A DNA stretch of 40,000 nt, taken from Pseudomonas sp. (lineage in GTDB: Bacteria > Pseudomonadota > Gammaproteobacteria > Pseudomonadales > Pseudomonadaceae). The notes under the pieces were generated by a model. It did no database searches. It was not told the DNA's origin and saw only the letters and a program-made list of their open reading frames with translations. The position numbers and the translations under genes were made by a program. This document shows, piece by piece, positions 4,748 to 28,808 of the stretch. Numbering within the stretch: the stretch's first letter is position 1; every line of letters begins with the position of its first letter. The stretch is from assembly GCA_034676485.1 (NCBI GenBank), contig JAUCCC010000015.1, forward strand, positions 962,355-1,002,354, in the 5' to 3' direction.

Positions 4748-4754
4748 GTTAGGC
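4748..4754 (+). repeat. Lone GTTAGGC core site at the start of the first cassette (relic attI or attC R' box)
   Basis: AAGCGTTAGGCAC sits 36 nt upstream of ATG 4790. I could not identify a convincing R''/L'' partner upstream. Confidence 0.4.
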
Positions 4755-4789
4755 ACTACATTTAAAACCCATACTTGAAGGAGAGAAAG

Positions 4790-5140
4790 ATGTCTCATAA
4801 TGAAGTCAGAAAGGGAATGACCAATGCAAAGTTCAATGAAGAGCAATCGGGAATTCTATTTGGAGAGATATTTATAATTGCTATTGGCTTGGGCTTGTAC
4901 GCGCAGTCTTGGTGGATTTTTGGTATGACTTTAATCGGGCTTATTATTGCTTTGTTTATCCCGGCAATAGCAATTCCATTGATGATTCTTCTTAGTATTG
5001 GCTGGGGTATTATCGGCTTCGGCATTGGAGCAATATTTGGTTCAACTGGGGCATCGGTAGTACTAGGTATAATTGGGCTTTTAGCCGGTCTTGGCGCGCA
5101 TTTCGCAGCTTTGCAATGGGCCAAAGACATTGGTGAATAA
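4790..5140 (+). CDS. Small Gly/Ile-rich multi-pass membrane protein (cassette 1)
   Basis: The RBS AAGGAGAG precedes ATG 4790. Hydrophobic glycine-zipper-like segments are present (GWGIIGFGIGAIFGSTGASVVLGIIGLLAGLG). attC_1 follows 3 nt after the stop. Confidence 0.5.
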   Translation: MSHNEVRKGMTNAKFNEEQSGILFGEIFIIAIGLGLYAQSWWIFGMTLIGLIIALFIPAIAIPLMILLSIGWGIIGFGIGAIFGSTGASVVLGIIGLLAGLGAHFAALQWAKDIGE

Positions 5141-5142
5141 TA

Positions 5143-5230
5143 GCCTAACAAGGCGCATCAGTCGCGGCCTGCGGCCGCTGGGACGTAAAACCGCTGACGC
5201 GTTTTTCCGCCCCTGTGCTATGCGTTAGCT
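5143..5230 (+). repeat. attC_1 (88 bp)
   Basis: GCCTAACAAGGCGC...GCTATGCGTTAGCT. It has R'' GCCTAAC, R' GTTAGCT and an imperfect internal dyad. Confidence 0.8.
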
Positions 5231-5294
5231 TTTTGTGCAAGCCCACGAATCTATAAACAAGCTGGCGAGCACGCAATTTTAAGTGAGTGGATAA

Positions 5295-7235
5295 ATGGCT
5301 GTTACTTACCCTGACCTAGAGAACATTCAGCGCCTTAAAGTCCCGCCAACTTCTGGGGAGTGGTCTTTGATAAATTATCTAAAAGACCATCTTGATGATA
5401 CCTATGAAGTGTTTTTTAACCCTTATCTGGACGGTGATAGGCCTGACATTATCATTTTGAAAGAGCGTAGCTCTGCTTTCATTATAGAAGTCAAAGACTG
5501 GGATTTAAAAAACTACTCAATTACCGAAAATAATAAGTGGAAAGTCTTTAATGGTTCAAAATTATCTACCATAGCATCTCCGCAATCTCAGGTTTTTCGA
5601 TACAAAAAGAACCTCTACGATTTGCATTTACCAGTAATAGGTCTAGCAAGAATCACAAACCCCAACTTTTATAATCTAGTTCACTGCTTTGTATATTTTC
5701 ATAATTCAGACAAAAACGTAATTGATTCGCTGTACTCTCCGGCAGAAGAAAAACATAAAGAGGAGCAATCGAGACTAAACCAAGCTGTCAAGGAAAAAAT
5801 GATAGCCTTTGATTCTTACGAGAAAAAAAGTGATTATCTAACTCGACAAAAGCGTAATTTGCAAAGAGATAAGAATATGTCTTTTGGTGATGATCGATTG
5901 GCTAACCTTGTAAAAAAGATCAAGCAAAATTCGATACATTCACTATTTGACGAAAATGTATATAGAGATTTTAAGCGAAGGCTTAGTCCGCCCGAACATA
6001 CACTCAATCAAGGGCGGTCAATCAAGTTTGATAATAAGCAATTAGCTCTAACGAAAAGTGAGAATGGAAATAACAAAATTAAAGGTGTTGCTGGTTGTGG
6101 TAAAACATCAATTTTATCTCAGCGTGCTATAAATGCTTCTCAAAGGCACAATTCAACTGTTCTTATATTGACATTTAACATTACTCTGAAAAATTACATC
6201 AGGGATAAGATTAGTGATATTCAGGGAAGTAGGGATTTTTCAACCTTTGAAATTTCAAATTATCACCAGTTTTTTAACTCTCAAGTTAATAACAGTAATC
6301 AAGATTTCGGCGAGTTGGTCGAGAAATATGGAATAAGCAGGATCTATTTTGTTGATGTTTTTCAAGATATGGATTTACCACGGTATCAAACAATTCTTAT
6401 TGATGAGATACAAGATTATCAATCAGAGTGGGTAAAAATTATTCGTGATAACTTCCTTCAGGACGATGGCGAAATGATTCTATTCGGAGATGAATCTCAG
6501 AACATTTACCAGAGAGACGTTTCTAGATCCCCTGTTATAGCTCAAGGGTTTGGGCGGTGGGTTAAGCTTACTCGATCTTATAGAACGAATTTAGATTCAC
6601 CATTGAACCAGTTGTTTAAAGATTTCCAAATAAAATTTCTGCTTGAAAAGAATTCAGACATAGAAATAACTGATGTAAGTCCTACCCAAATGGGAATAGG
6701 GTTTAGCCTTTTAAAATATGAGGAGACTGGATTGGACGATTGGAAAAAGTCGGTTTTTGATTCAGTCAAGAGCTATATCATAAGTTACAATTTGCATCCA
6801 AATGACGTAGTTATTTTGTCTTCAAAAATATCTCTGGTTAGGCAATTAAACGAATTATGGATAGAAAATGAAAGAACACACTGTATGTTCGAAACGTATG
6901 AAGAGTTATCTGCATGCACTAACATGAGCTTAGATAAGTTACAAAGATTAGACGAAAGTGGGATAAACATTCTCGTAAATCACAATAAAGAAAAAATCGA
7001 TAGAGTGAGAAGGGCAAAGAAGAATCACTTTTACGCTAATAGCGGTCTAGTAAAGTTCTCTACTATCCATAGTTATAAGGGGCTTGAGTCAAAAACTGTT
7101 TTTTATGTTATGGACGAGAGTGATGATCCGGAAATCGTATACACTTCGATAACGCGATCCTCAGAAAATCTCGTAGTCTTTGATGTTGGATGTAAAAACA
7201 AATGCTCTGAGTTTCTGAAAATCGCTATTAATTGA
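5295..7235 (+). CDS. NERD-domain / UvrD-like SF1 helicase fusion protein (cassette 2)
   Basis: The N-terminus has a NERD/PD-(D/E)xK-like motif (GDRPDIIILKERSSAFIIEVKDW). Helicase motifs follow: Walker A GVAGCGKTS, DExx ILIDEIQDY, LFGDESQNIY, RSYRTN, and the C-terminal FSTIHSYKGLESKTVFYV...YTSITRS. Confidence 0.7.
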   Translation: MAVTYPDLENIQRLKVPPTSGEWSLINYLKDHLDDTYEVFFNPYLDGDRPDIIILKERSSAFIIEVKDWDLKNYSITENNKWKVFNGSKLSTIASPQSQVFRYKKNLYDLHLPVIGLARITNPNFYNLVHCFVYFHNSDKNVIDSLYSPAEEKHKEEQSRLNQAVKEKMIAFDSYEKKSDYLTRQKRNLQRDKNMSFGDDRLANLVKKIKQNSIHSLFDENVYRDFKRRLSPPEHTLNQGRSIKFDNKQLALTKSENGNNKIKGVAGCGKTSILSQRAINASQRHNSTVLILTFNITLKNYIRDKISDIQGSRDFSTFEISNYHQFFNSQVNNSNQDFGELVEKYGISRIYFVDVFQDMDLPRYQTILIDEIQDYQSEWVKIIRDNFLQDDGEMILFGDESQNIYQRDVSRSPVIAQGFGRWVKLTRSYRTNLDSPLNQLFKDFQIKFLLEKNSDIEITDVSPTQMGIGFSLLKYEETGLDDWKKSVFDSVKSYIISYNLHPNDVVILSSKISLVRQLNELWIENERTHCMFETYEELSACTNMSLDKLQRLDESGINILVNHNKEKIDRVRRAKKNHFYANSGLVKFSTIHSYKGLESKTVFYVMDESDDPEIVYTSITRSSENLVVFDVGCKNKCSEFLKIAIN

Positions 7236-7251
7236 CATCAGACTAAGAAAA

Positions 7252-7322
7252 GCCAACAAGGCGCTGCTGTCAGACACATTTTTCGCTACGCTCCAAATGT
7301 GCTGCAGAGCGCGGCGTAGCTT
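7252..7322 (+). repeat. attC_2 (71 bp, aberrant R')
   Basis: GCCAACAAGGCGCTGC...GCAGAGCGCGGCGTAGCTT. The arms CACATTT/AAATGTG and GCGCTGC/GCAG(A)GCGC pair. R' reads GTAGCTT, one T short of GTTAGCT. Confidence 0.65.
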
Positions 7323-7345
7323 TGAAATCAACATTGGAGTATAAA

Positions 7346-7975
7346 ATGAGAAAACTCATAATTCTGACCGTTTTTTGTGCAGCTATCGCAGCCACTGCCG
7401 GTTGCGCATTACAAAAAGCCAAAGGTTGGGATCAGTATGCAAAATATATGGCTGCTTATGATGTCTTGAGCGCCGACTGTCTTGAATTGAACGAAAATGA
7501 CAGGGATTACATAAATTATCGAATTGCTGCGTCAAAGCTCCTAACGGTCATGGAGATTGATTCCGAGCTTTATAACAGTACATACAAAACAATCTATACA
7601 AACTCTCGCTCCGCTACCCGCGAAGAAAATATGGAATGGTGTGAAAAATTACGTCCAGCGATAGTTAATGAGACCGAGGGAATGGAGGGCGACTACCAGC
7701 TTGGCTTGAAGGTGGTTGATATATCTAGAAGAGAAAGAGCGGAGGCTTGGGCAACAGCTTTAGAGGCCACTGCTGCAATAGCCATGGCAGTTGGTGAGGG
7801 AATCCAGTCGGCAAACCAACAAGCAGCTCTTCAATACCGCTATATTCCAATGCCCTCAGGAAAGGTGACTTTCGGGCAAAACACTAAGAGCAATTACAAT
7901 CATTATCTGGTTAATACGCCCAGCGGAATGAGACAGTGCCATGTGGCTAGCTCAGGCTATGTTTTTTGCAACTAG
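7346..7975 (+). CDS. Putative lipoprotein, unknown function (cassette 3, gene 1)
   Basis: Signal peptide plus lipobox MRKLIILTVFCAAIAATAGC. ATG 7346 is in frame within ORF 7322-7975. Confidence 0.55.
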   Translation: MRKLIILTVFCAAIAATAGCALQKAKGWDQYAKYMAAYDVLSADCLELNENDRDYINYRIAASKLLTVMEIDSELYNSTYKTIYTNSRSATREENMEWCEKLRPAIVNETEGMEGDYQLGLKVVDISRRERAEAWATALEATAAIAMAVGEGIQSANQQAALQYRYIPMPSGKVTFGQNTKSNYNHYLVNTPSGMRQCHVASSGYVFCN

Positions 7976-8015
7976 ATAATATCAGCTATAAATAGAACCC
8001 CATAAAATAACGTAT

Positions 8016-8486
8016 ATGTGCGAATTTGAAAAACTATTAGCTTCTTTAGCGCCTCTGCTTTCTGCCGTTGCTGCAATTGCTGCCGCAATTGCAGCCTTTC
8101 AAGCAAACAATATATCTAAGTCGCTCAAAAGGCTTCAAAGGAATAGCATACTAAATCAGCGAGAAATTCAACTATTAAATCGTGCTCTTGAACTACTGAA
8201 GATTTATGAGGTTTGGTGTACTGATAGTGGAGCTGGTTCCGATGTTAATTTCCATGACAGCAATGAATCGAACTACAAATCAAGAGATGATGCATGGAGC
8301 CAAATTCCTCGCGATATTAAATATATACTCATCCAGCTTTCCTCGCACAGTGAACGCCTTGAGAATCTTCTCTCGCGCTGGGAGCAGGGCTTTATAAACA
8401 AAGTCGCAGAGTCCTACGCGTTGAAGGACGAGCAGGTGAAGGAAAAAATAAGTTCTTTGCGTGAAATTATTTCAGGCGGTCTATAA
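8016..8486 (+). CDS. N-terminally membrane-anchored hypothetical protein (cassette 3, gene 2)
   Basis: 156-aa ORF with one N-terminal hydrophobic helix (LLASLAPLLSAVAAIAAAIAAF), then a helical soluble part. No attC separates it from 7346-7975. Confidence 0.5.
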   Translation: MCEFEKLLASLAPLLSAVAAIAAAIAAFQANNISKSLKRLQRNSILNQREIQLLNRALELLKIYEVWCTDSGAGSDVNFHDSNESNYKSRDDAWSQIPRDIKYILIQLSSHSERLENLLSRWEQGFINKVAESYALKDEQVKEKISSLREIISGGL

Positions 8487-8563
8487 AGCTAATCGGGTAG
8501 CCGAGGGTTTCTAGCCCTCAGCCCCCACAACACCCTGCATGCGGCTCCGCACAGGGCGTTTCA

Positions 8564-8922
8564 CTAAGAATGGTGAAGCTTAATCCAACCATCGCGCAAT
8601 GCGTACAGACCCTGAGATTTTAAGTAAGCATTTGATAATGCCTGATTAATTCCCGGAGTTTTAGAGCTACGCCATGGGCCTTTGCTGGTGATACCGCATG
8701 CAACTGCAGCTTGCACATGAACGCCCAACCGCATTAAGTTTCTTACTTTAGTGCGCGGCTTGCGCCACTGTCGCCAATAGGCCATTCGCACTCTGCGCCG
8801 GATCCAATGATCCAGTTCAACGCAGTGCTGATAGCCACTGGCAATACCAAAGTAGTTTATCCAGCCGCGTAAATATTGGCTGACCTTAAACAGCTGGTAT
8901 TTCATTGACACGCCCCAGTTAC
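8564..8922 (-). pseudogene. Group II intron RT/maturase, C-terminal fragment (copy A)
   Basis: It matches residues ...SMKYQLFK(V/I)SQYLRGWINYFG...KLHHS of the intact copy B ORF. It is cut off at the IS66 insertion point. Confidence 0.85.
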
Positions 8923-9005
8923 GTAAGCGCCCTTAAATCAGCATCTTTTAAGCCAACCTATACAGCTTCACACTAATACCTGTCTTTTTCAAAGAGGTAT
9001 TAGCG

Positions 9006-9311
9006 ATGAAATCACAAGAACGTCAGCAGTTTTGGCAGCAGCATGTTGATGCTTGGCAGGCATCGGATTTATCCGGTGCTGCGTTTTGCAAGCAGCATGA
9101 TTTGAATTATGCACAATTTAATTATTGGCGTAGAAAGTTTCAGCCGGTAGACGCGGCTGCAAAGTCTGCTGGCTTTGCTCAGGTTACGCAGCTAGCTACC
9201 TCTGCTAGCAGTGCTGATGGGTTGGCTGTTCATCTGCCCAGCGGCATAAGTTTTTCTGGAGTGAATGCAGGTAATCTCGATGTAGTACTGGCGATGCTGA
9301 GGCAGTTGTAA
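9006..9311 (+). CDS. tnpA: IS66-family accessory protein TnpA
   Basis: 101-aa ORF, first gene of the IS66 module. Its stop overlaps the tnpB start (TAATG). Confidence 0.75.
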   Translation: MKSQERQQFWQQHVDAWQASDLSGAAFCKQHDLNYAQFNYWRRKFQPVDAAAKSAGFAQVTQLATSASSADGLAVHLPSGISFSGVNAGNLDVVLAMLRQL

Positions 9312-9679
9312 TGAAGGTGCGTTATTTACGGCCAGCCAAGCAGATGCCGGAAATTTATCTGTACCGTGCGCCGGTGGATTTTAGGAAGCAAGCCAATGGC
9401 TTGGCTTTGCTGGTTGAGCAAGAACTTGGCCACAATCCGTTCAGTGGTGCGCTGTATGCCTTTACCAATCGCCAGCGTAATAAAATCAAGTGCGTGATGT
9501 GGGAAGACAACGGTTTTGTCATGTATTACAAGGCATTGGCAGAAGAGAAGTTTAAGTGGCCTAAGCCCGCTGATGAGTTACTGTCTTTAACCGGTGAGCA
9601 AATAAATTGGCTGTTAGATGGCTACGATATTAGTCTGTTTAAAGGCCATAAAAAACTACAATACGATAGCTTAGGATAG
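9311..9679 (+). CDS. tnpB: IS66-family Orf2 protein TnpB
   Basis: The typical IS66 Orf2 sequence is present (IYLYRAPVDFRKQANGLALLVEQELGHNPFSGALYAFTNRQRNKIKCVMWEDNGF). Confidence 0.8.
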   Translation: MKVRYLRPAKQMPEIYLYRAPVDFRKQANGLALLVEQELGHNPFSGALYAFTNRQRNKIKCVMWEDNGFVMYYKALAEEKFKWPKPADELLSLTGEQINWLLDGYDISLFKGHKKLQYDSLG

Positions 9680-9747
9680 CTTGATTTTACTGGGTTTTAG
9701 CTGCTTTTAAGGGTGCTTTTGATGGTGGGTTTTGCTATAATTTCGGC

Positions 9748-11348
9748 ATGAAAAAACAGCCTAAAACCACCATAAAAACCCCTGATTTAAGCGGCCTTAG
9801 TGCCGCTGAATTACGTTTGGTTGTGGCACAGTTTCAAGCTGTTATTGATGAGCAGAACACTGCTTTGCAAGATGCCCATCGCCGTATCGAACTACTGGAA
9901 GAAATGAACCGCCTGCTGAAAACACAAAAGTTCAGTGCCAGCAGCGAAAAGTCTAAGTTTCAGCTCAACCTCTTTGATGAATCCGAGCTCGAAGCCCAGC
10001 TCGATGAATTGTTTGATACTTTGCCTGAAACGTCTGATGAAGGTGAAGGCATTGCTCAGCACCGTAAAGAGCGCCAGACACGTAAACGTGGTTTTTCTGC
10101 AAGCCTTGTGCGTGAACGCATTGAACACAAGCTCACTGAGCTGGAAAAAGCCGGTGCTAGTAAAACCTTCTTCACTAAAGTAAAAGAAGAACTGCACTAC
10201 ATTCCAGCGCAACTCAAAGTGCTGGAGCACTGGCAAGAAAAAGCCGTGTTCACGGCTGAAACTGATACACAAGACGAGCAGATGGTAGCCGCACAGCGCC
10301 CCGTACATCCTTTTGGCAAGTGCTCAGTTACCACCGCCTTGATTGCCCACGTTATTGTCGATAAATACCAGTACGGTATGCCGCTATATCGCCAAGAAAG
10401 TAAATTTAAAGGCTTAGGCCAACCGGTTTACCGCAACAACATGGCGCAGTGGTGTATACGCTTTGGTGGTGCAGCCAAACCCTTGCTGCAGCTGATGCGT
10501 GAGGTGCAAAATAGCGGTAATTACTTGCAAGCGGACGAAACCCGTCTGCAAGTGCTTAAAGAAGACGGTAAAACAGCGCAATCGGATAAATGGATGTGGG
10601 TTATCCGTGGCGGACCGCCCGAAAAACTCAGCGTGCTCTTTGAATATGATCCTTCGCGTGCAGGCAGTGTGGCTGTGCGCTTGCTGGATGATTTTAAAGG
10701 CGTGCTGCAAGCCGATGGTTTTTTCTGGTTATAACGCAGTATGCAAAGCCAACTCGATTACGCGCATCGGCTGCTGGGACCATGCACGGCGTAAGTTTGT
10801 TGAAGCAGATAAAGGCGCTAATCCCAAGGCTAAAACCAAGAAAGGCACCGTAAGCAAAGCCGATGTAGCGCTCAGTTACATCCGCAAACTCTATCGCATA
10901 GAAAGCAACATAGCTGACAAAACCGATGAAGAGCGTTTAAAAGCACGCCAAGAAATCAGCCTGCCAATACTCAACGAGTTTAAACAATGGCTTGAGAAAA
11001 ACGCTGGCAAAGTGATGAAAGGTAGCGCGCTCAGAAAAAGCCATCGACTACACCTTAAATCAATGGCAATACCTCATTGGCTACTGCGAACGCGGCGACC
11101 TGATGATCAGCAATATCATGGCCGAAAATGCCATCCGTCCCTTCGCCATTGGCCGCAAAAATTGGTTGTTTGCTGACACCCGTAAAGGCGCAGAAGCCAG
11201 CGCCGCTTGTTACTCACTGATAGAAACCGCCAAAGCTAACAACCTCGATCCGCAAAGCTACATCAAGCATATTCTTGACCACATAACTGTCGCTGACACA
11301 TTAGAAAAACTAGAAGCTCTGCTGCCCTGGAATGTAGAACTGGATTAA
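9748..11348 (+). pseudogene. tnpC: IS66-family transposase TnpC, interrupted by two +1 frameshifts
   Basis: Three ORF-track pieces (9748-10734, 10499-11176, 11103-11348) join into one ~533-codon reading. The shifts lie at a T6 run (10719-10724) and an A5 run (11035-11039). Removing one base at each restores ...LQADGFSGYNAV... and ...GSALRKAIDYTLNQWQYL... Confidence 0.8.
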
Positions 11349-11392
11349 GCTAAGTAGCCGTTCTGCAAGGGTGCTGATTTAAGGGCGCTTAC

Positions 11393-12418
11393 CCAGTTAC
11401 GATTCGTGAGTTTGCGAACATTCTGCTTAAACTTCAGCAGCGTTTTCGGGTGCCAATGAATGCGGTTCGCCTTGAACGTAAAGCCCAAGAACTGGCTTTC
11501 ATTGGTTTTAACCACACGACTTTTGTCAGTGTTGACCACTAACTTCAAACGGCTTTGCAAGTACTGACTGATACTGCGCAACACGCGCTCTCCAGCTCGC
11601 TGGCTCTTCACTAGAATCGTGAAATCATCCGCGTAGCGGGCAAACTTATGACCGCGTTTTTCAAGTTCTTTATCCAAAGAGTCGAGCATGATATTCGCCA
11701 GTAACGGCGACAATGGCCCACCTTGCGGTACACCCACTCGACTCTCACCTTTGAACTGATTATCGATAAACCCAGCTCTCAGGTAACGTTTAATCAGTCT
11801 AAGCAGACGTTTGTCTTTCACCTTGTCGCCAAGGCGCGTCATCAGTAGATCGTGATTAACTCGGTCAAAGAACTTCGACAGATCAACATCCACCGCGAAG
11901 CGGCGTCCTTCCTTGATGATGCTCTGTACCTGCTTAACCGCTTGCTGCCCATTACGACCTGGACGGAATCCAAAACTGTGTTCAGAAAACTCAGGGTCGA
12001 AAATAGGTGTTAATACTTGGGTAATGGCTTGTTGGATTACACGATCAGTAACGGTTGGAATACCCAGCTGACGAGTGCCGCCATCTGGTTTAGCTATTTC
12101 AACACGCCTTACCGGTGAGGGTTGATAACAGCCTGTTACCAGTTGTTGTTTCAATGCTTTCCAGTTGCCGGATCTTACCCAAGCGGGGAATTCATCGATG
12201 GTCATGCCATCGATGCCAGCGGCCCCTTTATTGGCTCGAACGCGTTTCCATGCCGCAGAGAGGTTATCTTCCTGCAGCACGTGCTCGAATAGATCGTTGC
12301 TAAAGGCTGGCTTCATATCGCTACGCTGAGTCACGTCATCGCCGGACGGCGTTCGTGTGTTCAAGTGTGACAAGGCTCCTCCTTTGTTCTTAATGTTCAG
12401 GCCTTCACCGTGTCCCAA
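11393..12418 (-). pseudogene. Group II intron RT/maturase, N-terminal fragment (copy A)
   Basis: It is identical to copy B apart from a few substitutions, up to ...RKLTNRNW. The frame then runs into the IS66 right end. Confidence 0.85.
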
Positions 12419-12895
12419 CCATTACGATGGGCGTTTGGCTACTATGCCGTCTGCTGACTTCTGCTTAATCACTCACAGAGTTGCCTCTGTTCGCGCTATC
12501 GGTTTGCATCTAATTCGCTCTCCAAGGTCGATACATTCCTTAGAGCCAAGGCACTTATTAACCAGAGCCTCACTGGTGAATTACCGATCGCTTGTTAAGC
12601 AGATCTCCCCAGATAAGAGCATGTACTGTCACTGCACTGCTGCATCATTTACGGTGGTCGTTAGATCACATGGCTTCGTTGTCTTGTGCCAACTCGCCTT
12701 CAGCCTACGCCTCATATGATGTTTTTGTTCATCAGCTCGCAGCTTTGCGTCCGGCTTCCTCCAGACAACTCCTCGCGGAGCTGCCCTTGCCATTCGCTAG
12801 TAGTTAACATCTAATAACGATCATAAATCGCTAAGGATGGTGACCTTCCTACAGAGGACTTTCACCTCATTAGTTCATGCCCATGCTGGGCGTAC

Positions 12896-12968: not shown

Positions 12969-12997
12969 TACATACGAAATTGCATCGGAGATGATCC

Positions 12998-20311: not shown

Positions 20312-20316
20312 GTACT

Positions 20317-20376: not shown

Positions 20377-20451
20377 CGTAAAAACCGAGTCGTGGCACAG
20401 GCAATTAATCTGTGTCAAAATTGAGCAACACGAGAATGAGAGGCTTTATTT

Positions 20452-20966: not shown

Positions 20967-21038
20967 CAATCGGCTGCACCGCGACCGATTTTCCGCCGCT
21001 TCGCTGCTCCAAACCAGCGCGTGAGCCGGGCGTTATGA
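20961..21038 (+). repeat. attC_8 (78 bp)
   Basis: CTTTAACAATCGGCTGCACCGCGACCG...CCAGCGCGTGAGCCGGGCGTTATGA. Confidence 0.85.
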
Positions 21039-21062
21039 GTTACAGCGATGTAGAGGTATACA

Positions 21063-21377
21063 GTGGAGTCTTCGGAATACGAACATAGATGCCAATTCAT
21101 CCCTAGTAACGATATCCACGTTTATCGTTCAGAGGAGTTCTTAGACAGTGAAGTGTGGGAGTGGTGTTTAGTCATCCAGAGAAGTGCAAGTGAGAGTGAC
21201 ATTGAAAAGAATCATTACCTTGATGAGGTCGGCGATTCGATATGGCAAACTATTGTCGGTATCTCACATTGTCCGTATTGTGGCGAATATCTTGAATCAG
21301 TGAAGTGCAACGACATCTCCCGCGAGGGGGAGTTCTTTCATATCGATTCTTCCGGGTGGACAGGTAGAGTTCTTTAG
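21063..21377 (+). CDS. Hypothetical protein with a CPYCG motif (cassette 9)
   Basis: A GTG start follows GAGGT. The ORF is 104 aa, with no family recognised. Confidence 0.4.
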   Translation: MESSEYEHRCQFIPSNDIHVYRSEEFLDSEVWEWCLVIQRSASESDIEKNHYLDEVGDSIWQTIVGISHCPYCGEYLESVKCNDISREGEFFHIDSSGWTGRVL

Positions 21378-21395
21378 TGATACCAATAACTCATA

Positions 21396-23419
21396 ATCGG
21401 GTAGCCGAGGGTTTCTAGCCCTCAGCCCCCACAACACCCTGCATGCGGCTCCGCACAGGGCGTTTCACTAAGAGTGGTGAAGCTTAATCCAACCATCGCG
21501 CAATGCGTACAGACCCTGAGATTTTAAGTAAGCATTTGATAACGCCTGATTAATCCCCGGAGTTTTAGAGCTACGCCATGGGCCTTTGCTGGTAATACCG
21601 CATGCAACTGCAGCTTGCACATGAACACCCAGCCGCATTAAGTTTCTTACTTTAGTGCGCGGCTTGCGCCACTGTCGCCAATAGGCCATTCGCACCCTGC
21701 GCCGGATCCAATGATCCAGCTCAACGCAGTGCTGATAGCCACTGGCAATACCAAAGTAGTTTATCCAGCCGCGTAAATATTGGCTGATCTTAAACAGCTG
21801 GTATTTCATTGACACGCCCCAGTTGCGATTCGTGAGTTTGCGAACATTCTGCTTAAATTTCAGCAGCGTTTTCGGGTGCCAATGAATGCGATTCGCCTTG
21901 AACGTAAAGCCCAAGAACTGGCTTTCATTGGTTTTAACCACACGACTTTTGTTAGTGTTGACCACTAACTTCAAACGGCTTTGCAAGTACTGACTGATAC
22001 TGCGCAGCACTCGTTCTCCAGCTCGCTGGCTCTTCACTAGAATCGTGAAATCATCCGCGTAGCGGGCAAACTTATGACCGCGTTTTCCAAGTTCTTTATC
22101 CAAAGAGTCGAGCATGATATTCGCCAGTAACGGCGACAATGGCCCACCTTGCGGTACACCCACTCGACTCTCACCTTTGAACTGATTATCGATAAACCCA
22201 GCTCTCAGGTAACGTTTAATCAGTTTAAGAAGACGTTTGTCTTTCACCTTGTCGCCAAGGCGCGTCATCAGTAGATCGTGATTAACTCGGTCAAAGAATT
22301 TCGACAGATCAACATCCACCGCGAAGCGGCGTCCTTCCTTGATGATGCTCTGTACCTGCTTAACCGCTTGCTGCCCATTACGACCTGGACGGAATCCAAA
22401 ACTGTGTTCAGAAAACTCAGGGTCGAAAATAGGTGTTAATACTTGGGTAATGGCTTGTTGGATTACACGATCAGTAACGGTTGGAATACCCAGCTGACGA
22501 GTGCCGCCATCTGGTTTAGCTATTTCAACACGCCTTACCGGTGAGGGTTGATAACAGCCTGTTACCAGTTGTTGTTTCAATGCTTTCCAGTTGCCGGATC
22601 TTACCCAAGCGGGGAATTCATCGATGGTCATGCCATCGATGCCAGCGGCCCCTTTATTGGCTCGAACGCGTTTCCATGCCGCAGAGAGGTTATCTTCCTG
22701 CAGCACGTGCTCGAATAGATCGTTGCTAAAGGCTGGCTTCATATCGCTACGCTGAGTCACGTCATCGCCGGACGGCGTTCGTGTGTTCAAGTGTGACAAG
22801 GCTCCTCCTTTGTTCTTAATGTTCAGGCCTTCACCGTGTCCCAACCATTACGATGGGCGTTTGGCTACTCGGCAATTGCTCCATGCATTGCTCTACCTCC
22901 TGCATCCATGCAGTCGTATGCCGTCTGCTGAAATCTCATGGATGGAGTGAATGCAAAGAATGTTGGAACATTTTTGGTCTTCTGCTTAATCACTCACAGA
23001 GTTGCCTCTGTTCGCGCTATCGGTTTGCATCTAATTCGCTCTCCAAGGTCGATACATTCCTTAGAGCCAAGGCACTTATTAACCAGAGCCTCACTGGTGG
23101 ATTACCGATCGCTTGTTAAGCAGATCTCTCCCCAGATAAGAGCATGTACTGTCACTGCACTGCTGCATCATTTACGGTGGGCCGTTAGATCACATGGCTT
23201 CGTTGTCTTGTGCCAACTCGCCTTCAGCCTACGCCTCATATGATGTTTTTGTTCATCAGCTCGCAGCTTTGCGTCCGGCTTCCTCCAGACAACTCCTCGC
23301 GGAGCTGCCCTTGCCATTCGCTAGTAGTTAACATCTAATAACGATCATAAATCGCTAAGGATGGTGACCTTCCTACAGAGGACTTTCACCTCATTAGTTC
23401 ATGCCCATGCTGGGCGTAC
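21396..23419 (-). mobile_element. Group II intron copy B (class C / attC-type), intact, antisense to the cassettes
   Basis: It has the same ends as copy A. Removing 21396-23419 restores TCATA|ACAATCAACTGCACAGCGACCG, an attC of the attC_8 family. The RT ORF is intact. Confidence 0.85.
21468..22844 (-). CDS. Group II intron reverse transcriptase/maturase (start codon uncertain; maximal ORF given)
   Basis: RT motifs are present (KGAAGIDG, VRRVEIAKPDGGTRQLGIPTVTDR, FGFRPGRNGQQA, VPQGGPLSPLLANI, RYADDFTILV), with a maturase region (LRGWINYFG). There is no En domain. Possible starts are TTG 22844, an internal TTG after AAGGAGG, or ATG 22742. Confidence 0.9.
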   Translation of the reverse strand: MGHGEGLNIKNKGGALSHLNTRTPSGDDVTQRSDMKPAFSNDLFEHVLQEDNLSAAWKRVRANKGAAGIDGMTIDEFPAWVRSGNWKALKQQLVTGCYQPSPVRRVEIAKPDGGTRQLGIPTVTDRVIQQAITQVLTPIFDPEFSEHSFGFRPGRNGQQAVKQVQSIIKEGRRFAVDVDLSKFFDRVNHDLLMTRLGDKVKDKRLLKLIKRYLRAGFIDNQFKGESRVGVPQGGPLSPLLANIMLDSLDKELGKRGHKFARYADDFTILVKSQRAGERVLRSISQYLQSRLKLVVNTNKSRVVKTNESQFLGFTFKANRIHWHPKTLLKFKQNVRKLTNRNWGVSMKYQLFKISQYLRGWINYFGIASGYQHCVELDHWIRRRVRMAYWRQWRKPRTKVRNLMRLGVHVQAAVACGITSKGPWRSSKTPGINQALSNAYLKSQGLYALRDGWIKLHHS

Positions 23420-23492
23420 ACAATCAACTGCACAGCGACCGGTTTTCCGCCGCTTCGCGGCTCCAAACCGGCGCGTGAGCCGGGCGTTAGCA
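23420..23492 (+). repeat. attC_9, 3' part (the 5' part TCATA is at 21391-21395, separated by intron B)
   Basis: ACAATCAACTGCACAGCGACCGGTTTTCCGCCGCTTCGCGGCTCCAAACCGGCGCGTGAGCCGGGCGTTAGCA is collinear with attC_8. Confidence 0.8.
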
Positions 23493-23552
23493 GTTGCACT
23501 ACTACTCCTTCCGTATCTTGCAGGCTGAGTAAAAAGGGGGTAATTTATACTC

Positions 23553-23816
23553 ATGGAAGAATTTGAATTCGACGAAGCCAAAAGTCAGGCAAATTTGGAT
23601 AAGCACGGTATTGATTTTGTGGCGGCTCAAGAGCTATGGAAAGATCCGCATTTACTGGAAGTTAGAGCAAAATCAGAGGATGAGTCAAGGTTTGCACTGA
23701 TAGGCAAGGTTGGTGAAAAGCACTGGTCGGCTGTCGTCACGTACAGGGAAGGTCGTATTCGTCTGATTTCAGTCAGGCGTTCTCGTAAGAAGGAGGTTGA
23801 GTTCTATGAAAGCTAA
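23553..23816 (+). CDS. brnT: BrnT-family (DUF497) toxin (cassette 10)
   Basis: MEEFEFDEAKSQANLDKHGIDF...RIRLISVRRSRKKE is a typical BrnT pattern. It overlaps the downstream antitoxin gene. Confidence 0.75.
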   Translation: MEEFEFDEAKSQANLDKHGIDFVAAQELWKDPHLLEVRAKSEDESRFALIGKVGEKHWSAVVTYREGRIRLISVRRSRKKEVEFYES

Positions 23817-24075
23817 AGACTTCGATAAAAAATTCGACGAAGGTCAAGAAGATATTATTGAAGACCTTGATTTGTCCACCGCCCGTCGTACTAATCTCAA
23901 ACAAAAACGAATCAACGTGGACTTTCCCGCTTGGGTCGTAGAATCGTTGGATCGTGAGGCTGCGCGCATTGGTGTTACCCGCCAATCAATCATCAAAGTC
24001 TGGCTGGTTGAGCGTCTTCAAGCAGAAACTGCTAACAAACCGATCAAGGATGACGCCGTAGGCGGCGCACATTAG
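23797..24075 (+). CDS. brnA: BrnA-type antitoxin (ribbon-helix-helix)
   Basis: NVDFPAWVVESLDREAARIGVTRQSIIKVWLVERL is an RHH motif. The start is probably ATG 23806. Its 3' end overlaps attC_10. Confidence 0.7.
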   Translation: MSSMKAKDFDKKFDEGQEDIIEDLDLSTARRTNLKQKRINVDFPAWVVESLDREAARIGVTRQSIIKVWLVERLQAETANKPIKDDAVGGAH

Positions 24076-24088
24076 CGGAGCGTTAGGC
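24031..24088 (+). repeat. attC_10 (58 bp)
   Basis: GCTAACAAACCGATCAAGGATGACGCCGTAGGCGGCGCACATTAGCGGAGCGTTAGGC, with central stem CGCCG/CGGCG. Confidence 0.7.
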
Positions 24089-24104
24089 ACACAAGGAGGT
24101 ATTA

Positions 24105-24380
24105 ATGCTATTTCAACGACGAAACCGGACGTTCCGCGAGTGGTGGCGGGCACCTATTACTTCTAGAGAACGGAGTTCGGGCGTGCTCATTGGTGGCCTA
24201 GGCGGTTTCTGGATTGGAGCACTCGGTCGCATTGCCCTTGGTACAACACCAGTGTCCCTTGGTGAGGTGGCAGTTTTGGGGTTGGCCGTGGCTACTTGTT
24301 GCGCAGTTGCTGGTTTTGTATTTCCAAAACTTGTAACTATTATTCTCTTTCCATTCTCAACCTTTGGCGGCAGCAACTAA
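24105..24380 (+). CDS. Small two-TM membrane protein (cassette 11)
   Basis: The RBS AAGGAGG precedes the ATG. It has two hydrophobic segments (VLIGGLGGFWIGALG; VLGLAVATCCAVAGFVF). Confidence 0.45.
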   Translation: MLFQRRNRTFREWWRAPITSRERSSGVLIGGLGGFWIGALGRIALGTTPVSLGEVAVLGLAVATCCAVAGFVFPKLVTIILFPFSTFGGSN

Positions 24381-24410
24381 GGTGGTCATTCCGGTAGCTG
24401 CTCGGTTGAT

Positions 24411-24470
24411 GCCTAACAATTCATTCAAGCCGACGCCTCTTCGTGGTGCGTTTTAATTCAGGCGTTAGGC
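24411..24470 (+). repeat. attC_11 (60 bp)
   Basis: GCCTAACAATTCATTCAAGCCGACGCCTCTTCGTGGTGCGTTTTAATTCAGGCGTTAGGC. Confidence 0.9.
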
Positions 24471-24495
24471 CTTAAACTAGCAGCAGGGGGGGTAT

Positions 24496-25062
24496 ATGTA
24501 TTGTACGAAATGCGGGCAAAAAAACGAAAACGAGACGCTCTACTGTCCAACTTGCGGAACAGCAACGCGTCAGCAAGGATTGACCCACCCGCCAACCAGA
24601 AAGGTTGCAGCAGACTTTTCATCATCCATATGTTATGCCGGGTTTTGGTTCCGTGCGCTGGCGTTGTTTATTGACGTTATTTTCTCAACCATCATGACCA
24701 TTATTATTGTGTTGCCTCTTGCTTTTTCATTCGGCCTATCAATGGCTGATAGTGCAACAACCAAAGAGCTAGAGGTAATGGGAGAGGCAATGGGAAATGT
24801 GCTAGGTTGGATTGTCTCTTGGCTATATTTCACTATTTCCGAGTCGTCTAGGTGGCAAGCAACCCCAGGAAAGAAACTTCTTGGTCTTCGCGTTACTGAT
24901 TTAAATGGTGGGAGGATTGGTTTTGGCAAAGCCAATGGACGCTACTGGGCTCAGATACTTTCTGTTATCACTTTGCTTATCGGCTATATCATGGCTGCTT
25001 TCACTGCGAAAAAACAGGCCTTGCATGACATGATGGCTGGCACGCTTGTTGTTAGGGGTTAA
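24496..25062 (+). CDS. Zinc-ribbon / RDD-family membrane protein (cassette 12)
   Basis: The N-terminus has MYCTKCGQKNENETLYCPTCG. RDD-type TM core follows (YAGFWFRALALFIDVIF...RIGFGKANGRYW...LHDMMAGTLVV). Confidence 0.75.
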   Translation: MYCTKCGQKNENETLYCPTCGTATRQQGLTHPPTRKVAADFSSSICYAGFWFRALALFIDVIFSTIMTIIIVLPLAFSFGLSMADSATTKELEVMGEAMGNVLGWIVSWLYFTISESSRWQATPGKKLLGLRVTDLNGGRIGFGKANGRYWAQILSVITLLIGYIMAAFTAKKQALHDMMAGTLVVRG

Positions 25063-25071
25063 GCAAGAGCG

Positions 25072-25117
25072 GCCTAACAATTCATTCACGTCGCGACGGT
25101 TTAATTCCAACTTTAAT
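25072..25117 (+). repeat. attC_12 (short, degenerate R')
   Basis: GCCTAACAATTCATTCACGTCGCGACGGTTTAATTCCAACTTTAAT is collinear with attC_11, but R' reads CTTTAAT instead of GTTRRRY. Confidence 0.5.
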
Positions 25118-25267
25118 CTTCACAAAATGAAGCTGACTAACATCGAACCGTAGAGAGCTTTCAATGTCGCAAATAATTGAAAATTTTACCCGGCGGCTAT
25201 ATGAAGATTGGTTGCCTTCATTTTGTGGGGACCTCACCGGAACTATAGTTCGGCTGGGTTTAAAGGG

Positions 25268-25858
25268 ATGTCGATCAAAAATTTATGTGAGCACGATGCC
25301 TATTGGTTTATGCGCGCTGTCGATTCACATCTAGTTTCCGAGTCGGATGGTTTCTTTATGGCACCCCGAGGCATGGCTAAGGAGCAAGTATTTTGGCAAG
25401 GAGCGAAGAATAAAAAACCGCGCCCGGTAACTTTATGGGTTGAGCCAGTCATTACTATAGGTGCACTAGCCAGACTTAATAAGCAATACGGTTGGCCTGC
25501 GTCTAATCTTGGCGCCCAATCGAAAAGTTGGGCCTTTGATTTAGTGTGCTATGAAACCTCGTCCGATGGTGAGTTGATGTGCTGTGAAGTGAAGAAGCAG
25601 TCTGATGAGATTAGTGAGCTACTCAAATATATGTACGTTCATAGCTCGGAGCCTGTTCAGGAGTACGAGCCGGCAGATGCCAAGGAGCGAAATGCCTATC
25701 GAAAAGTTCAGGGAATTAGGGTTTCTTGGCCTTCTTATTTCTGGGCGCTTGGCCCAAGTGGGAAGGGGCAAGTATTTCAAGTACAGCGAGAGCATGAATC
25801 GCAGAATTTTAGTCTCATACCATGCAATGAAGAGTTGCTAAGGTATACAGGCGCTTAA
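25268..25858 (+). CDS. Hypothetical protein with a PD-(D/E)xK-like motif (cassette 13)
   Basis: ATG 25268 lies within ORF 25208-25858. The motif is WAFDLVCY-x-CCEVKK (D-x15-E-x-K). The stop TAA lies inside R'' of attC_13. An overlapping out-of-frame ORF from ATG 25164 hints at a frameshift. Confidence 0.5.
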   Translation: MSIKNLCEHDAYWFMRAVDSHLVSESDGFFMAPRGMAKEQVFWQGAKNKKPRPVTLWVEPVITIGALARLNKQYGWPASNLGAQSKSWAFDLVCYETSSDGELMCCEVKKQSDEISELLKYMYVHSSEPVQEYEPADAKERNAYRKVQGIRVSWPSYFWALGPSGKGQVFQVQREHESQNFSLIPCNEELLRYTGA

Positions 25859-25914
25859 CAAACCGCTGCAACCGACGTTCGTCACCTCAAACGTGTCTGA
25901 GCTCGGCGTTAAAT
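25853..25914 (+). repeat. attC_13 (62 bp)
   Basis: GCTTAACAAACCGCTGCAACCGACG...CTGAGCTCGGCGTTAAAT. Confidence 0.7.
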
Positions 25915-25930
25915 AACACGGGTGGAATCT

Positions 25931-26407
25931 ATGCTTGCTCGAGAAGTAACAGAAGATGATATTGAACAAATCTGTAAGTTAGCAGAAACACGAGAAGAGC
26001 TTTTTTACTGCTTTCCTAGGGCAACCTTTCCGTTATCTGTGGCTGATGTGCGCCATAGTATTCAAACGCGTGCGAGTGCAACTGTGATAGAAAAGGATGG
26101 GCGTGTTGTTGCTTTTGCAAATTTTTATCGCTGGCAAGAAGGCGTATGCTCGATTGGCAATGTCATTGTTTCATCTGACTGCAGGGGAATCGGTGTAGGT
26201 CGTTATTTAATCTCGCATATGACCAAGCTAGCATTTGAAAAGTACCATGCAGAAACTGTAACGGTGTCATGTTTTAACCGAAATGTGGCGGGGCTTCTTT
26301 TTTACCCAAAACTTGGTTTTTGTCCTTACGAGACTGAGTCGCGAATAGATTATAGTGGAGAGCAAGTTGCTCTCATCCACTTCAAAGTCGAGCCGTATGC
26401 AATTTAA
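25931..26407 (+). CDS. GNAT-family N-acetyltransferase (cassette 14)
   Basis: The acetyl-CoA motif A is present (VIVSSDCRGIGVGRYLISHM), on a beta-strand-rich ~160-aa scaffold. Confidence 0.8.
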   Translation: MLAREVTEDDIEQICKLAETREELFYCFPRATFPLSVADVRHSIQTRASATVIEKDGRVVAFANFYRWQEGVCSIGNVIVSSDCRGIGVGRYLISHMTKLAFEKYHAETVTVSCFNRNVAGLLFYPKLGFCPYETESRIDYSGEQVALIHFKVEPYAI

Positions 26408-26465
26408 CGCGTTGCTCAAGGAGTGTTCACTAGGTTCGCTGGGCAGCCCCTTAACTCTGTATTGG
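26402..26465 (+). repeat. attC_14 (uncertain R')
   Basis: ATTTAACGCGTTGCTCAAGGAG...GCAGCCCCTTAACTCTGTATTGG. The L' arm CCCCTTAAC is shared with attC_5. R' reads GTATTGG, which is non-canonical. Confidence 0.45.
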
Positions 26466-26483
26466 CCACTGTAGTGTAGCTTT

Positions 26484-26541
26484 GAATTATTGCAGCACAA
26501 AACGCAAATTTTAATATTTGCGTTTTGTGCTGCAATAATTC
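26484..26541. repeat. Perfect 26-bp inverted repeat with 6-nt spacer
   Basis: GAATTATTGCAGCACAAAACGCAAAT-TTTAAT-ATTTGCGTTTTGTGCTGCAATAATTC, located 40 nt upstream of the Fic start codon. Confidence 0.9.
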
Positions 26542-26581
26542 ACCATTAAATGGTAATCACTAAGAATTTAGAGAGTGAGTC

Positions 26582-28052
<1,471 letters not shown>

Positions 28053-28086
28053 ATTTAATAATAAAGTTGTAGGTATATAGAAATGG

Positions 28087-28156
28087 AATTAACATATTCA
28101 CTGCGCTCGTAGGAAAAGTTGGACAGGAAGTGTTGAGGGTAAGTGAATATTTTGAT
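28087..28156 (+). repeat. Possible degenerate attC_15
   Basis: AATTAACATATTCACT...AGTGAATATTTTGAT. The arms CATATTCACT/AGTGAATAT pair, but R' reads TTTTGAT with the G lost. Confidence 0.35.
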
Positions 28157-28290
28157 TTTATATTAGAGTTGTAGTGTTTTTTATCTTCAATTTATTGCTC
28201 AAAGTTTGGCTAAGCAAATTAATTTCATTTTATAAAATAAAATCGCACCATTAACAAAATAAGAAGATGATATCGTTAGCATCGTTTTAG

Positions 28291-28683
28291 ATCCCGCTAA
28301 AAGCGATACTGAAAAATAGCCTAATTAAATCTCGTATTGGGCAAGGTCGATTTAGGCGCGATTTACTCACTATGTGGGATGGATGTTCAGTAACAGGTTG
28401 TGTAACTTTTGATCTGCTCGCCGCAAGCCATATTAAACCTTGGAGTGCATCAAACAATGAAGAGTGGCTTGATCTATATAATGGTTTTTTATTAGTCGCG
28501 CACTTGGATAAAGCATTCGATTCAGGCCTTATTAGTTTTGATTCTAAAGGTCAGATCATGATTTCTAATGCGTTCAATGAGCAGCAATTGATTGGTATAA
28601 CTCAAAATATTAAAATTGCGTTAAGGCCTCGGCGTGAAAAGTATTTGCAACATCATCGAACTGCTGTGTTCAAAAAAGCATAA
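28291..28683 (+). pseudogene. HNH endonuclease, 5'-truncated remnant
   Basis: The open frame starts just after a stop at 28288-28290. It retains RIGQGRFRRDLL...CSVTGC...LLAASHIKPW...NGFLLVAHLDKAFDSGLISF but lacks the N-terminal half I would expect in full-length relatives. Confidence 0.55.
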
Positions 28684-28748
28684 AAACGACTGTTGTTGGA
28701 AGTGGGCACGGCTTAGAACAAACGAAACAGTCACTTGGTGGACGCATC

Positions 28749-28808
28749 ATATAACAAGGGACTCAAACAAGAGCGTGCTAGACCATGCGGTAAGGCTTTG
28801 CGTTAGTC
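28749..28808 (+). repeat. attC_16 (60 bp), last recognisable attC
   Basis: ATATAACAAGGGACTCAAACAAGAGCGTGCTAGACCATGCGGTAAGGCTTTGCGTTAGTC. It belongs to the AACAAGG...CTTTGCGTT family, as attC_3 does. Confidence 0.75.

Follow-up and report, generated by a model that had tools for sequence, protein, structure and literature searches.

An integrase-less integron cassette array between smc and thpR of Pseudomonas sp. and its probable descent from an IntI2-type chromosomal integron

How does a gene cassette array of some 24 kb come to stand in a bacterial chromosome with no integrase beside it? The question is raised by a locus of Pseudomonas sp. in which integron-type cassettes occupy the space between smc and thpR (assembly GCA_034676485.1, contig JAUCCC010000015.1, positions 962,355-1,002,354 of the forward strand; these 40,000 nucleotides (nt), numbered from their first letter, are the window to which all coordinates refer). 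A cluster of attC sites lacking integron-integrase has been termed a CALIN, and integrase loss is among the origins proposed for such clusters (PMC4889954). The reading favored here, with a probability of about 0.85, traces the locus to a chromosomal integron of the IntI2 (class 2-like) lineage that has since decayed, carried by a Thiopseudomonas-like gammaproteobacterium.

The locus is confirmed as a genuine integron cassette array. Sixteen co-oriented attC-type sites are present within 5143-28808, preceded by a leading GTTAGGC core at 4748-4754, and a reading of the intervals between open reading frames (ORFs) places an RYYYAAC...GTTRRRY unit of 58-110 nt behind each gene or gene pair. As a small stand-in for the IntegronFinder attC model, a covariance model, R1, was built on 11 aligned attC sites from cassettes of class 1 integrons (blaIMP-4, qacG2, aacA4, blaVIM-2, aadA1, catB3, dfrA14, qnrVC4, catB2, dfrB1, and blaVIM-1), taken from plasmid records only and without use of the window; both helices, R and L, are part of the model, as is the bulged base. 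In plasmid loci R1 recovers the sites on which it was trained, along with further cassette junctions known from annotation. With filters off, R1 detects nine sites in the window at E<=1.3e-3 and 21-49 bits, on the + strand only and inside 5143-25914, namely 24411-24470 (48.9 bits), 20317-20376 (43.2 bits), 25853-25914 (35.1 bits), 14378-14447 (33.6 bits), 18450-18559 (29.6 bits), 19876-19944 (27.3 bits), 20961-21038 (26.0 bits), 7251-7321 (22.0 bits), and 5143-5230 (21.4 bits). Three weaker matches correspond to candidates previously read as degenerate or intron-split, and the whole window holds no other match with E<1, neither outside the array nor on the - strand. The control, 1.5 Mb in 79 chromosomal loci of related bacteria, reaches a top score of 18.6 bits. 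A strict regular expression demanding complementarity of R'' and R' was dropped after matching only one site: half of R' comes from the adjacent cassette, which makes such a demand too stringent. Folding of the attC bottom strands as DNA by minimum free energy frequently missed the canonical attC structure, and the covariance model was therefore relied on.

The first-pass annotation, made from the bare sequence, had listed 16 co-oriented sites of attC type, a count that stands and that comprises the nine sites scored by R1, three sites split by introns, and four that are weak or degenerate. It had also held that the idea should be abandoned if a covariance model failed on these sites, whereas the plasmid-trained R1 scores nine of them. 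One correction concerns a supposed lone core at 18553, which is the R' of the complete 110-nt attC 18450-18559 (29.6 bits). The three split sites (8487-8491 with 12896-12968, 15270-15340 with 17229-17233, and 21391-21395 with 23420-23492) become canonical only once a group II intron is removed, and the weak or degenerate ones are 24030-24088 (10.4 bits), 25072-25118 (11.2 bits), 26401-~26474, and 28749-28808. Helices L'' and L' with a bulged base can be read in the attC sites of the array, and comparison of the sites bears out the proposal that several attC sequence families are interleaved; one of them, 24411-24470, is 84-90% identical to the attC of aadA6, aadA10, and aadA16 cassettes on more than 5000 plasmids. 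Equally sound were the observations that TAA stop codons of several cassette ORFs lie inside R'' boxes and that composition swings from cassette to cassette, with G+C of 0.36-0.62 against 0.49-0.53 in the flanks. Six of the 16 sites are split or mutated, the defective cores being those of 7251-7322, 25072-25118, and 26401-~26474. Each intron splits an attC and should block recombination there, and together with the three mutated cores these sites would be recombination dead ends, so that the array appears to be partly frozen.

No integrase or integrase remnant was found from 4.7 kb to the left to 11 kb to the right of the array. A tblastn search with IntI2 gave nothing at E<1 against the window, including the left 4.7 kb and the right 11 kb beyond the array, and Pfam searches of all sizeable ORFs of the window returned no Phage_integrase or tyrosine recombinase domain, in agreement with the earlier claim of an integron array without an integrase. 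By the rule of at least two clustered attC sites without an intI in the vicinity (a distance of 4 kb for IntegronFinder and of 10 kb for pseudogene searches), the locus, with 16 sites and no integrase in the window, is a CALIN.

The origin of this CALIN can be approached through the 300 nt that precede its first core. This leader (4455-4754, + strand), which has no intI upstream, is homologous to the intI2-attI2 intergenic region of class 2 integrons: 96% of the leader is matched, at 68.8% identity, by 217 plasmids, in which the match is the interval from the intI2 start codon (~15 nt after) to the first cassette. The alignment starts at a palindrome, CTGT-N8-ACAG, and ends at the attI2 core, GCATGCTTACTAATAA..GTTAGGC. 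The palindrome of the window, the LexA-box-like CTGTTTACCTATACAG at 4462-4477, aligns with the putative LexA operator over PintI2; in class 2 integrons the LexA operator CTGTATAGGCAGACAG overlaps PintI2 (PMC5559693), and CTGTTTACCTATACAG may be considered a putative LexA box and the remnant of a PintI region. A LexA-regulated small gene within the leader had been entertained as an alternative, and was dropped in favor of a PintI remnant after the class 2 alignment; there is likewise no support for small leader ORFs (23-52 amino acids) as genes. At the other end, the R box GTTAGGC (4748-4754, + strand) is preceded by GCTTAC-TAATAAGC, and cassette 1 starts after its G. All leaders compared end in ...CTAATAnnn(n)G/TT (a slash marks a junction within a motif), and divergence sets in after GTT in the window, in the related loci L092, L087, L108, and L103, and in class 2 integrons. 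It is by homology that this end qualifies as an attI, the leader ending at GTTAGGC and its relatives parting exactly behind G/TT. The first-pass annotation had considered the entire intI-attI module to be missing, which holds for intI; the attI/promoter half is present at 4455-4754, as indicated by its class 2 homology.

The stop codon of smc (4447-4449) is located about 5 nt before the start of leader homology and, by alignment, the intI start codon would sit at ~4440, within the final smc codons; the fusion point therefore differs by only a few bases from the position where the lost gene began. The same smc-leader junction is found in L001, the one close relative returned by a scan of genome contigs with the smc C-terminus, whose contig ends inside the leader, and in L092, two independent contigs, which makes an assembly chimera unlikely; the leader is missing from the 79 other smc loci. 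Leader identity to the window amounts to 80% in L112-L114, 74% in L087, 72% in L108, and, in L092, 86% by MAFFT or 89% by BLAST, and the smc genes of the window and L092 agree at 89% of first and second codon positions and 54.5% of third positions. Since the junction is common to the window and L092, loss of the integrase predates their split, and the two loci carry different first cassettes behind it. Conservation of the leader would fit a retained function, be it promoter activity, service as an attI for an integrase in trans, or the two combined; its similarity between the window and L092 could also stem from recent exchange. Class 2 integrons possess two promoters, Pc2A and Pc2B, inside attI2 (PMC5559693), and transcription may still start in the leader because promoters of this type lie in attI and not in intI. 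A candidate, TTGTCT-16-TAATAT, was recognized in the leader by eye. A terminator scan of the leader gave nothing above background, and an Rfam search of it at a permissive threshold gave no match. The PintI-like region (4462-4520) runs in the - strand direction and faces the 3' end of smc; if active, it would give smc antisense transcription.

Relatives of the locus, compared with one genome per lineage and found in part through thpR homologues, display intact, pseudogenised, and integrase-deleted forms of one platform. In L087-L091 the leader lies behind metE instead of smc. Between metE and the leader, L086 (Thiopseudomonas) carries an intI2-like pseudogene that covers residues 1-72 at 64% identity and has in-frame stops, while in L087 intI is cleanly absent at the leader head. 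Complete integrons with the same attI core type and other neighbors occur in L108 (IntI 80% identical to IntI2), L103 (Thiopseudomonas, 76%), and L111 (77%), and in L112-L114 an intact chromosomal IntI, with 88% identity to IntI2, stands beside a homologue of the leader. In the intact integrons of L108 and L112 the leader homologue adjoins intI. The intact IntI genes, 76-88% identical to IntI2 (L108, L103, L111, and L112-L115, the last being ENA metagenome contigs), have next to them non-coding DNA homologous to the class 2 attI2 region, at 71% in L112, and stand in chromosomal contexts, next to MesX, metE-like, greA-B, and ccm genes, an rlmB-like gene, fba, or prpF, and other IntI2-like matches bore the names Marinospirillum, Thiopseudomonas, and Psychrobacter.

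On the right-hand side, co-oriented arrays with attC matches, some short and some long (as in L097), are located directly upstream of thpR in L086, L087/88, and L097/98, all from Thiopseudomonas-type genomes; the linkage between array and thpR thus extends over at least four lineages, and the cassettes differ among them. In L094-L096 no array directly precedes thpR, and a CBS-domain gene ends 42 nt before it. In L094 a separate small attC cluster (1-830) lies ~7 kb further upstream of thpR, past cho and an ABC transporter, and holds the attC of the transposase cassette described below and a site at 752-829 (23 bits). Adjacency of smc and thpR themselves was found in none of 80 smc loci. The first-pass annotation had pictured an array wedged between smc and thpR and acquired piecemeal: the heterogeneity of attC sites and of composition is confirmed, and a free-floating, piecemeal insertion is not borne out, because arrays with the same leader and other cassettes precede thpR in related lineages and L086 has an intI2-like pseudogene. 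The comparison of this junction in relatives, suggested at the time, shows other arrays upstream of thpR in L086, L087, L097, and L098 and none directly upstream in L094. A conserved core region with the same gene order and no repeats, which would have spoken against an array, was not seen, since relatives carry different cassettes and do have attC sites. Individual cassettes are shared: the toxin-antitoxin cassette 20371-21032 recurs at other array positions in L098 (87%) and L111 (81%).

The array has itself been colonized by mobile elements. Rfam detects three group II introns in the window, which take up ~8.3 kb of the 24 kb array and were missed by the earlier inventory, as were an insertion sequence (IS) of the IS66 family and the cassette nature of an IS91-like gene. 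Intron copy 1 (8492-12895, - strand; Rfam RF02001, RF01998, and RF00029; Pfam RVT_1 and GIIM) and intron copy 2 (21396-23419, - strand; intact, with a reverse transcriptase/maturase ORF at 21468-22844) are antisense to the cassettes and show about 98-99% identity to each other. Both have ribozyme domains recognized by Rfam, and RVT_1 and GIIM as sole Pfam matches, with no endonuclease domain. They cut attC at TTGT/T, in R'' of the bottom strand, with the junctions CCTTGT/intron/TAGC and GATTGT/intron/TATG, and joining of the flanks restores AGCTAAC...GTTGGGC (copy 1) and TCATAAC...GTTAGCA (copy 2). Group IIC-attC introns are known for bottom-strand insertion and antisense orientation (PMC3001079; PMC7923331), and both features are seen in copies 1 and 2. 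Introns of 99% identity are present, antisense and at the same TTGT/T, in the aadA1, catB3, and catB2 attC of class 1 integrons on plasmids of Pseudomonas putida, Providencia, and Enterobacter, and the junction layout of both copies is that of the aadA1 attC intron on pVIM_Pse-KSS435. The likeness to S.ma.I2-type IIC-attC introns thus includes a maturase with no endonuclease, the TTGT/T bottom-strand site, and the antisense orientation; the difference is that here two copies share one chromosomal array, one of them disrupted by an IS66-family element.

This element (8923-11392, + strand; Pfam TnpB_IS66, DDE_Tnp_IS66, and related models) lies inside intron copy 1 and cuts its reverse transcriptase/maturase ORF into 11345-12418 and 8564-8911. 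Its assignment to the IS66 family follows from TnpA-like and TnpB ORFs, a TnpC that is frameshifted and read in three ORFs, the terminal inverted repeat GTAAGCGCCCTTAAATCAGCA, and a duplicated 8-bp target, CCAGTTAC, located at 8915-8922 and 11393-11400; given the frameshifts in TnpC, the element is probably inactive. Intron copy 2 holds, at 22869-22977, two extra segments (~49 and ~47 nt) around ATGCCGTCTGCTGA, just upstream of the reverse transcriptase ORF; neither copy 1 nor the plasmid introns of 99% identity contain these ~96 nt, which are the reason why RF01998 matches copy 1 only. The two copies are direct repeats of ~2 kb in the same orientation, 12.9 kb apart, and recombination between them could delete cassettes 4-10 at once.

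Intron 3 (15341-17228, + strand) is of group II, class C-like, and lies in the sense direction (Rfam RF02001, 121.9 bits; reverse transcriptase/maturase ORF 15812-17137 by Pfam). It sits at GT/T of the R' core, in the attC top strand, and so departs from the IIC-attC introns in the criterion of bottom-strand, antisense insertion. One earlier report, from Enterobacter cloacae, describes an attC interrupted by a class C intron in the top strand and in sense orientation (PMC7923331), so this type of insertion is rare and not new. Moreover, a class 1 integron on Proteus penneri pPp47 carries in its aac(6')-Ib4 attC an intron that matches intron 3 at 96.5% identity and shares its GT/T top-strand site and cassette orientation. 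Intron 3 differs from published sense introns of the E. cloacae and pPp47 type in its host, a chromosomal array lacking an integrase.

The IS91-like Y2 transposase gene is itself a gene cassette, cassette 6 (17229-18553, + strand; IS91-family Y2 transposase ORF 17298-18503, Pfam Y2_Tnp and Zn_Tnp_IS91). It starts G/TTGCACATAGCC, and an identical start, GTTGCACATAGCCGCTACGCG, stands directly behind the attI core in L108, where intI (80% to IntI2), leader, and GTT are followed by this same cassette. Its complete 110-nt attC (18450-18559, GTACAAC...GTTGGGC) overlaps the 3' end of the transposase gene and recurs in L094 at 91% identity (window 18464-18555). An ordinary IS insertion was ruled out, the attC overlapping the ORF end and the same unit lying behind attI in L108; IS91-family elements have ori-IS and ter-IS ends of their own and insert at a GTTC/CTTG target, and no IS91-type ends were identified around the gene, which is bounded by G/TT cassette junctions and its own attC.

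Taken together, these observations suggest the following course of events. The ancestor would have been a complete chromosomal integron of IntI2 type, of which the attI/promoter leader (4455-4754), the GTTAGGC core, and a co-oriented array of 16 cassettes were kept, while intI, expected in divergent orientation just left of the leader, would have been lost, a deletion or rearrangement having brought the 3' end of smc up against the leader. Excision, reshuffling, and addition of cassettes would now require an integrase in trans, from another integron of the genome or from an incoming plasmid; leader-proximal cassettes may still be transcribed, and toxin-antitoxin cassettes may help to hold the array in place. 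Elements that recognize folded attC DNA have colonized the array, and the IS66-family element struck one intron copy later. Several points weigh against this account. No intI remnant exists in the window, so that the ancestral intI is deduced from leader homology and from relatives, and the absence of intI has been established for the window. The left flank varies by lineage (smc, metE, fba, an rlmB-like gene, or prpF), so that more than one order of loss and rearrangement is conceivable. A simple sigma-70 consensus scan of the leader gave nothing above background, the two terminal sites (26401 and 28749) are unscored by R1 and were recognized by reading the sequence, and the attC sites are more heterogeneous than is usual in large sedentary integrons.

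Other explanations have to account for the same facts. The repeats could be thought of as intergenic palindromes, such as terminators or elements resembling repetitive extragenic palindromes, in a conserved operon region, and indeed several minimum-free-energy folds lack the textbook attC structure and two terminal sites are unscored; but the scores of an independently trained R1, their strand bias and confinement to the array, near-identity to the aadA attC, attC-specific introns at canonical positions, and relatives that carry different genes and no conserved operon make this idea so improbable that it can practically be set aside. It is also very improbable that the locus was never an integron and that a foreign integrase placed cassettes serially into a secondary, attG-type GTT site downstream of smc. 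Insertion at secondary sites is a documented route to CALINs (PMC4889954; bioRxiv 10.1101/2022.09.11.507474), and the attC sites here are heterogeneous and of types that match mobile integrons, yet such a scenario does not explain why full-length homology links the 300 nt ahead of the first core with the intI-attI region in class 2 and related chromosomal integrons, why a relative has an intI pseudogene at the head of its array, why the same leader stands behind another left flank, or why it is missing from 79 other smc loci. A split integron, in which a rearrangement carried an intact intI elsewhere on the chromosome and both parts act as one functional integron, would suit the variable left flank and the fact that in Pseudomonas smc is normally followed by genes other than thpR, and splitting by rearrangement is a recognized origin of CALINs (PMC4889954). 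This is nevertheless improbable, as it requires a break no more than ~15 nt from the intI start codon, leaving intI promoterless, and as intI has decayed in situ at the homologous position in L086 and is cleanly absent in L087.

A closer competitor is the possibility that the locus is an active satellite, where an IntI2-like integrase encoded elsewhere in the genome still works the orphan attI and the attC sites, so that cassettes are gained and lost. The odds are against it, though it has real weight: two species share a junction behind which the first cassette differs, with a leader at 86-89% identity and smc third positions at 54.5%; intact IntI2-like genes exist at other loci of related metagenome-assembled genomes; different arrays have cassettes in common at different positions; and the introns and one attC are near-identical to those of present-day plasmid integrons. 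On the other hand, among the genomes compared none has been shown with both an intact intI and an integrase-less platform, conservation of the leader is explicable by promoter function or recent exchange, deletion can produce differences in the first cassette, and six of 16 attC are split or mutated. More tentative still, and on balance doubtful, is the proposal that the leader is a maintained, integrase-less platform for cassette recruitment, older than the divergence of the two species, under purifying selection, and with its first cassette exchanged through an IntI2-like integrase acting in trans. If this were true, one integrase could serve several attI platforms per genome, and the Thiopseudomonas-like clade would be a candidate source of the clinical class 2 integron.

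The decayed integron may be placed among known systems, since all of its components belong to known kinds of elements. With CALINs it has in common at least two co-oriented attC sites, no nearby intI, cassettes of mostly unknown or non-resistance function, and IS elements; it differs in its 16 sites, 83% of CALINs having fewer than 6 and 6.6% more than 10 (PMC4889954), and in a full-length attI/promoter leader assignable to one lineage, most CALINs being without an integrase-side remnant. The class 2 integron of Tn7 (intI2*-attI2-dfrA1-sat2-aadA1) aligns with it over the entire intI2-attI2 intergenic region at 69%, and the aligned part takes in both the palindrome resembling a LexA box at PintI2 and the terminal core, GCATGCTTACTAATAA..GTTAGGC. 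Class 2 integrons are marked by IntI2, or its pseudogene with a stop at codon 179, in a Tn7 setting. In contrast, the locus is chromosomal, carries non-resistance cassettes, and holds no intI2, even as a pseudogene, and no Tn7 tns genes in the window; these sequence features place it as a relative of the class 2 integron and not as class 2 itself. Sedentary chromosomal integrons with decayed integrases, such as the Xanthomonas arrays beside ilvD, form a third term of comparison. They share a fixed neighborhood (thpR here), lineage-variable cassettes, toxin-antitoxin cassettes, and, in some lineages, an inactivated or lost integrase (see bioRxiv 10.1101/2025.06.18.660453). The present locus is linked to thpR across lineages, each sampled by one genome, and shares its last cassette with L100; its attC sites, however, are heterogeneous and do not form one species-specific family, its integrase-side flank is not conserved, and its integrase is wholly absent rather than pseudogenised.

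What appears to be new is a CALIN lineage that can be traced, with a conserved orphan attI2-like leader and chromosomal IntI2 relatives beside it. No description of chromosomal attI2/IntI2 relatives, or of a link between Thiopseudomonas and such integrons, was found in the literature searched, coverage of which was incomplete. The origin of CALINs can usually not be traced, 95% having no recognizable integrase remnant nearby, and is readable for this locus. Because class 2-type cassette promoters lie in attI, loss of the integrase need not silence an array, a possible reason for its persistence. The locus also connects a bacterium from the environment or a digester with the pool of clinical integrons, through introns 96-99% identical to those of plasmid-borne class 1 integrons and an aadA-type attC, and the IntI2-like chromosomal clade may be the source of class 2 integrons, to judge from the similarities described above.

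The cassettes themselves, all on the + strand, encode a varied set of products. Cassette 1 (4749-5224) has an ORF for a small membrane protein (4775-5140) with no Pfam match, and an attC (5143-5230) reading GCCTAAC...GTTAGCT. The AT-rich cassette 2 (5225-7316; G+C 0.36) encodes a NERD-UvrD-type helicase (5295-7235, Pfam), and its attC (7251-7322) has a defective R', GTAGCTT, with one T missing. Cassette 3 (7317-12962) carries ORFs 7322-7975 and 8016-8486, followed by an attC that intron copy 1 splits into 8487-8491 (AGCTA) and 12896-12968 (ACAAGGCGCGCC...GCGTTGGGC). The GC-rich cassette 4 (12963-14441; 0.62) encodes a ferric-reductase-like flavoprotein (12998-14332, Pfam) and has the attC GCCCAAC...GTTATAT (14378-14447). 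Cassette 5 (14442-15340) comprises an ORF ending at 14794 and a DUF1643 ORF (14808-15275, Pfam), and its attC, ATATAAC...AAACGT/TGCAC, is split by intron 3 (15270-15340 and 17229-17233). A 13-nt repeat, TATATAACAACTG, found at ~15268-15280, at the R'' end of the attC after the DUF1643 ORF, and at ~17277-17289, in the 5' untranslated part of the transposase cassette, may be a remnant attC half-site from cassette fusion.

Beyond the transposase cassette, cassette 7 (18554-19939) encodes an amidase (18611-19861, Pfam) and ends in attC 19876-19945; cassette 8 (19940-20370) holds ORF 19988-20311 and attC 20317-20376, of the aadA/catB3-like type; and cassette 9 (20371-21032) carries a toxin-antitoxin pair (20452-20676, Unstab_antitox, and 20673-20966) with attC 20961-21038. 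In cassette 10 (21033-23486), ORF 21063-21377 precedes an attC split by intron copy 2 into 21391-21395 (TCATA) and 23420-23492 (ACAATCAAC...GGCGTTAGCA), the 3' part of which is a weak R1 match of 10.6 bits. A second toxin-antitoxin pair, BrnT/BrnA (23553-23816 and 23797-24075, Pfam), makes up cassette 11 (23487-24082), whose attC (24030-24088) overlaps the ORF end. Cassette 12 (24083-24464) consists of ORF 24105-24380 and attC 24411-24470, GCCTAAC...GTTAGGC, and cassette 13 (24465-25112) encodes an RDD-family membrane protein (24496-25062, Pfam) and has a shortened attC (25072-25118) with an R' lacking its G (CTTTAAT). Cassette 14 (25113-25908) contains ORF 25208-25858 and attC 25853-25914, and cassette 15 (25909-26470, boundary approximate) a GNAT acetyltransferase (25922-26407, Pfam) and an attC remnant (26401-~26474) with the R'' ATTTAAC, an L-type helix, and no GTT core. 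The array ends with cassette 16 (26471-28802; G+C 0.38), which comprises a Fic-domain ORF (26582-27397), ORF 27453-28052, and an HNH ORF (28372-28683), and with its weak attC of poor helices (28749-28808, ATATAAC...GTTAGTC). The GC skew of this terminal unit is strongly positive, reaching 0.40 within 27001-28500; the unit has no internal attC and could represent fused cassettes or another type of insertion. Its last 650 bp, like the junction between the HNH ORF and thpR, are 99.6% identical in L100, an independent contig of the same species.

The left flank consists of gntR (247-954) and the core gene smc (958-4449, + strand; Pfam SMC_N and SMC_hinge). To the right, thpR (29058-29603, + strand; Pfam LigT_PEase), which encodes an RNA 2',3'-cyclic phosphodiesterase, is the conserved flank and is followed by a DEAD/ResIII helicase gene (29771-31540), by TRAP transporter genes dctQM (31855-33803) and dctP (33916-34932) on the - strand, and by a further TRAP transporter set, dctPQM (35444-38311), syntenic with L094 and L097. 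These two transporter sets, at 31855-38311, represent ordinary core content.

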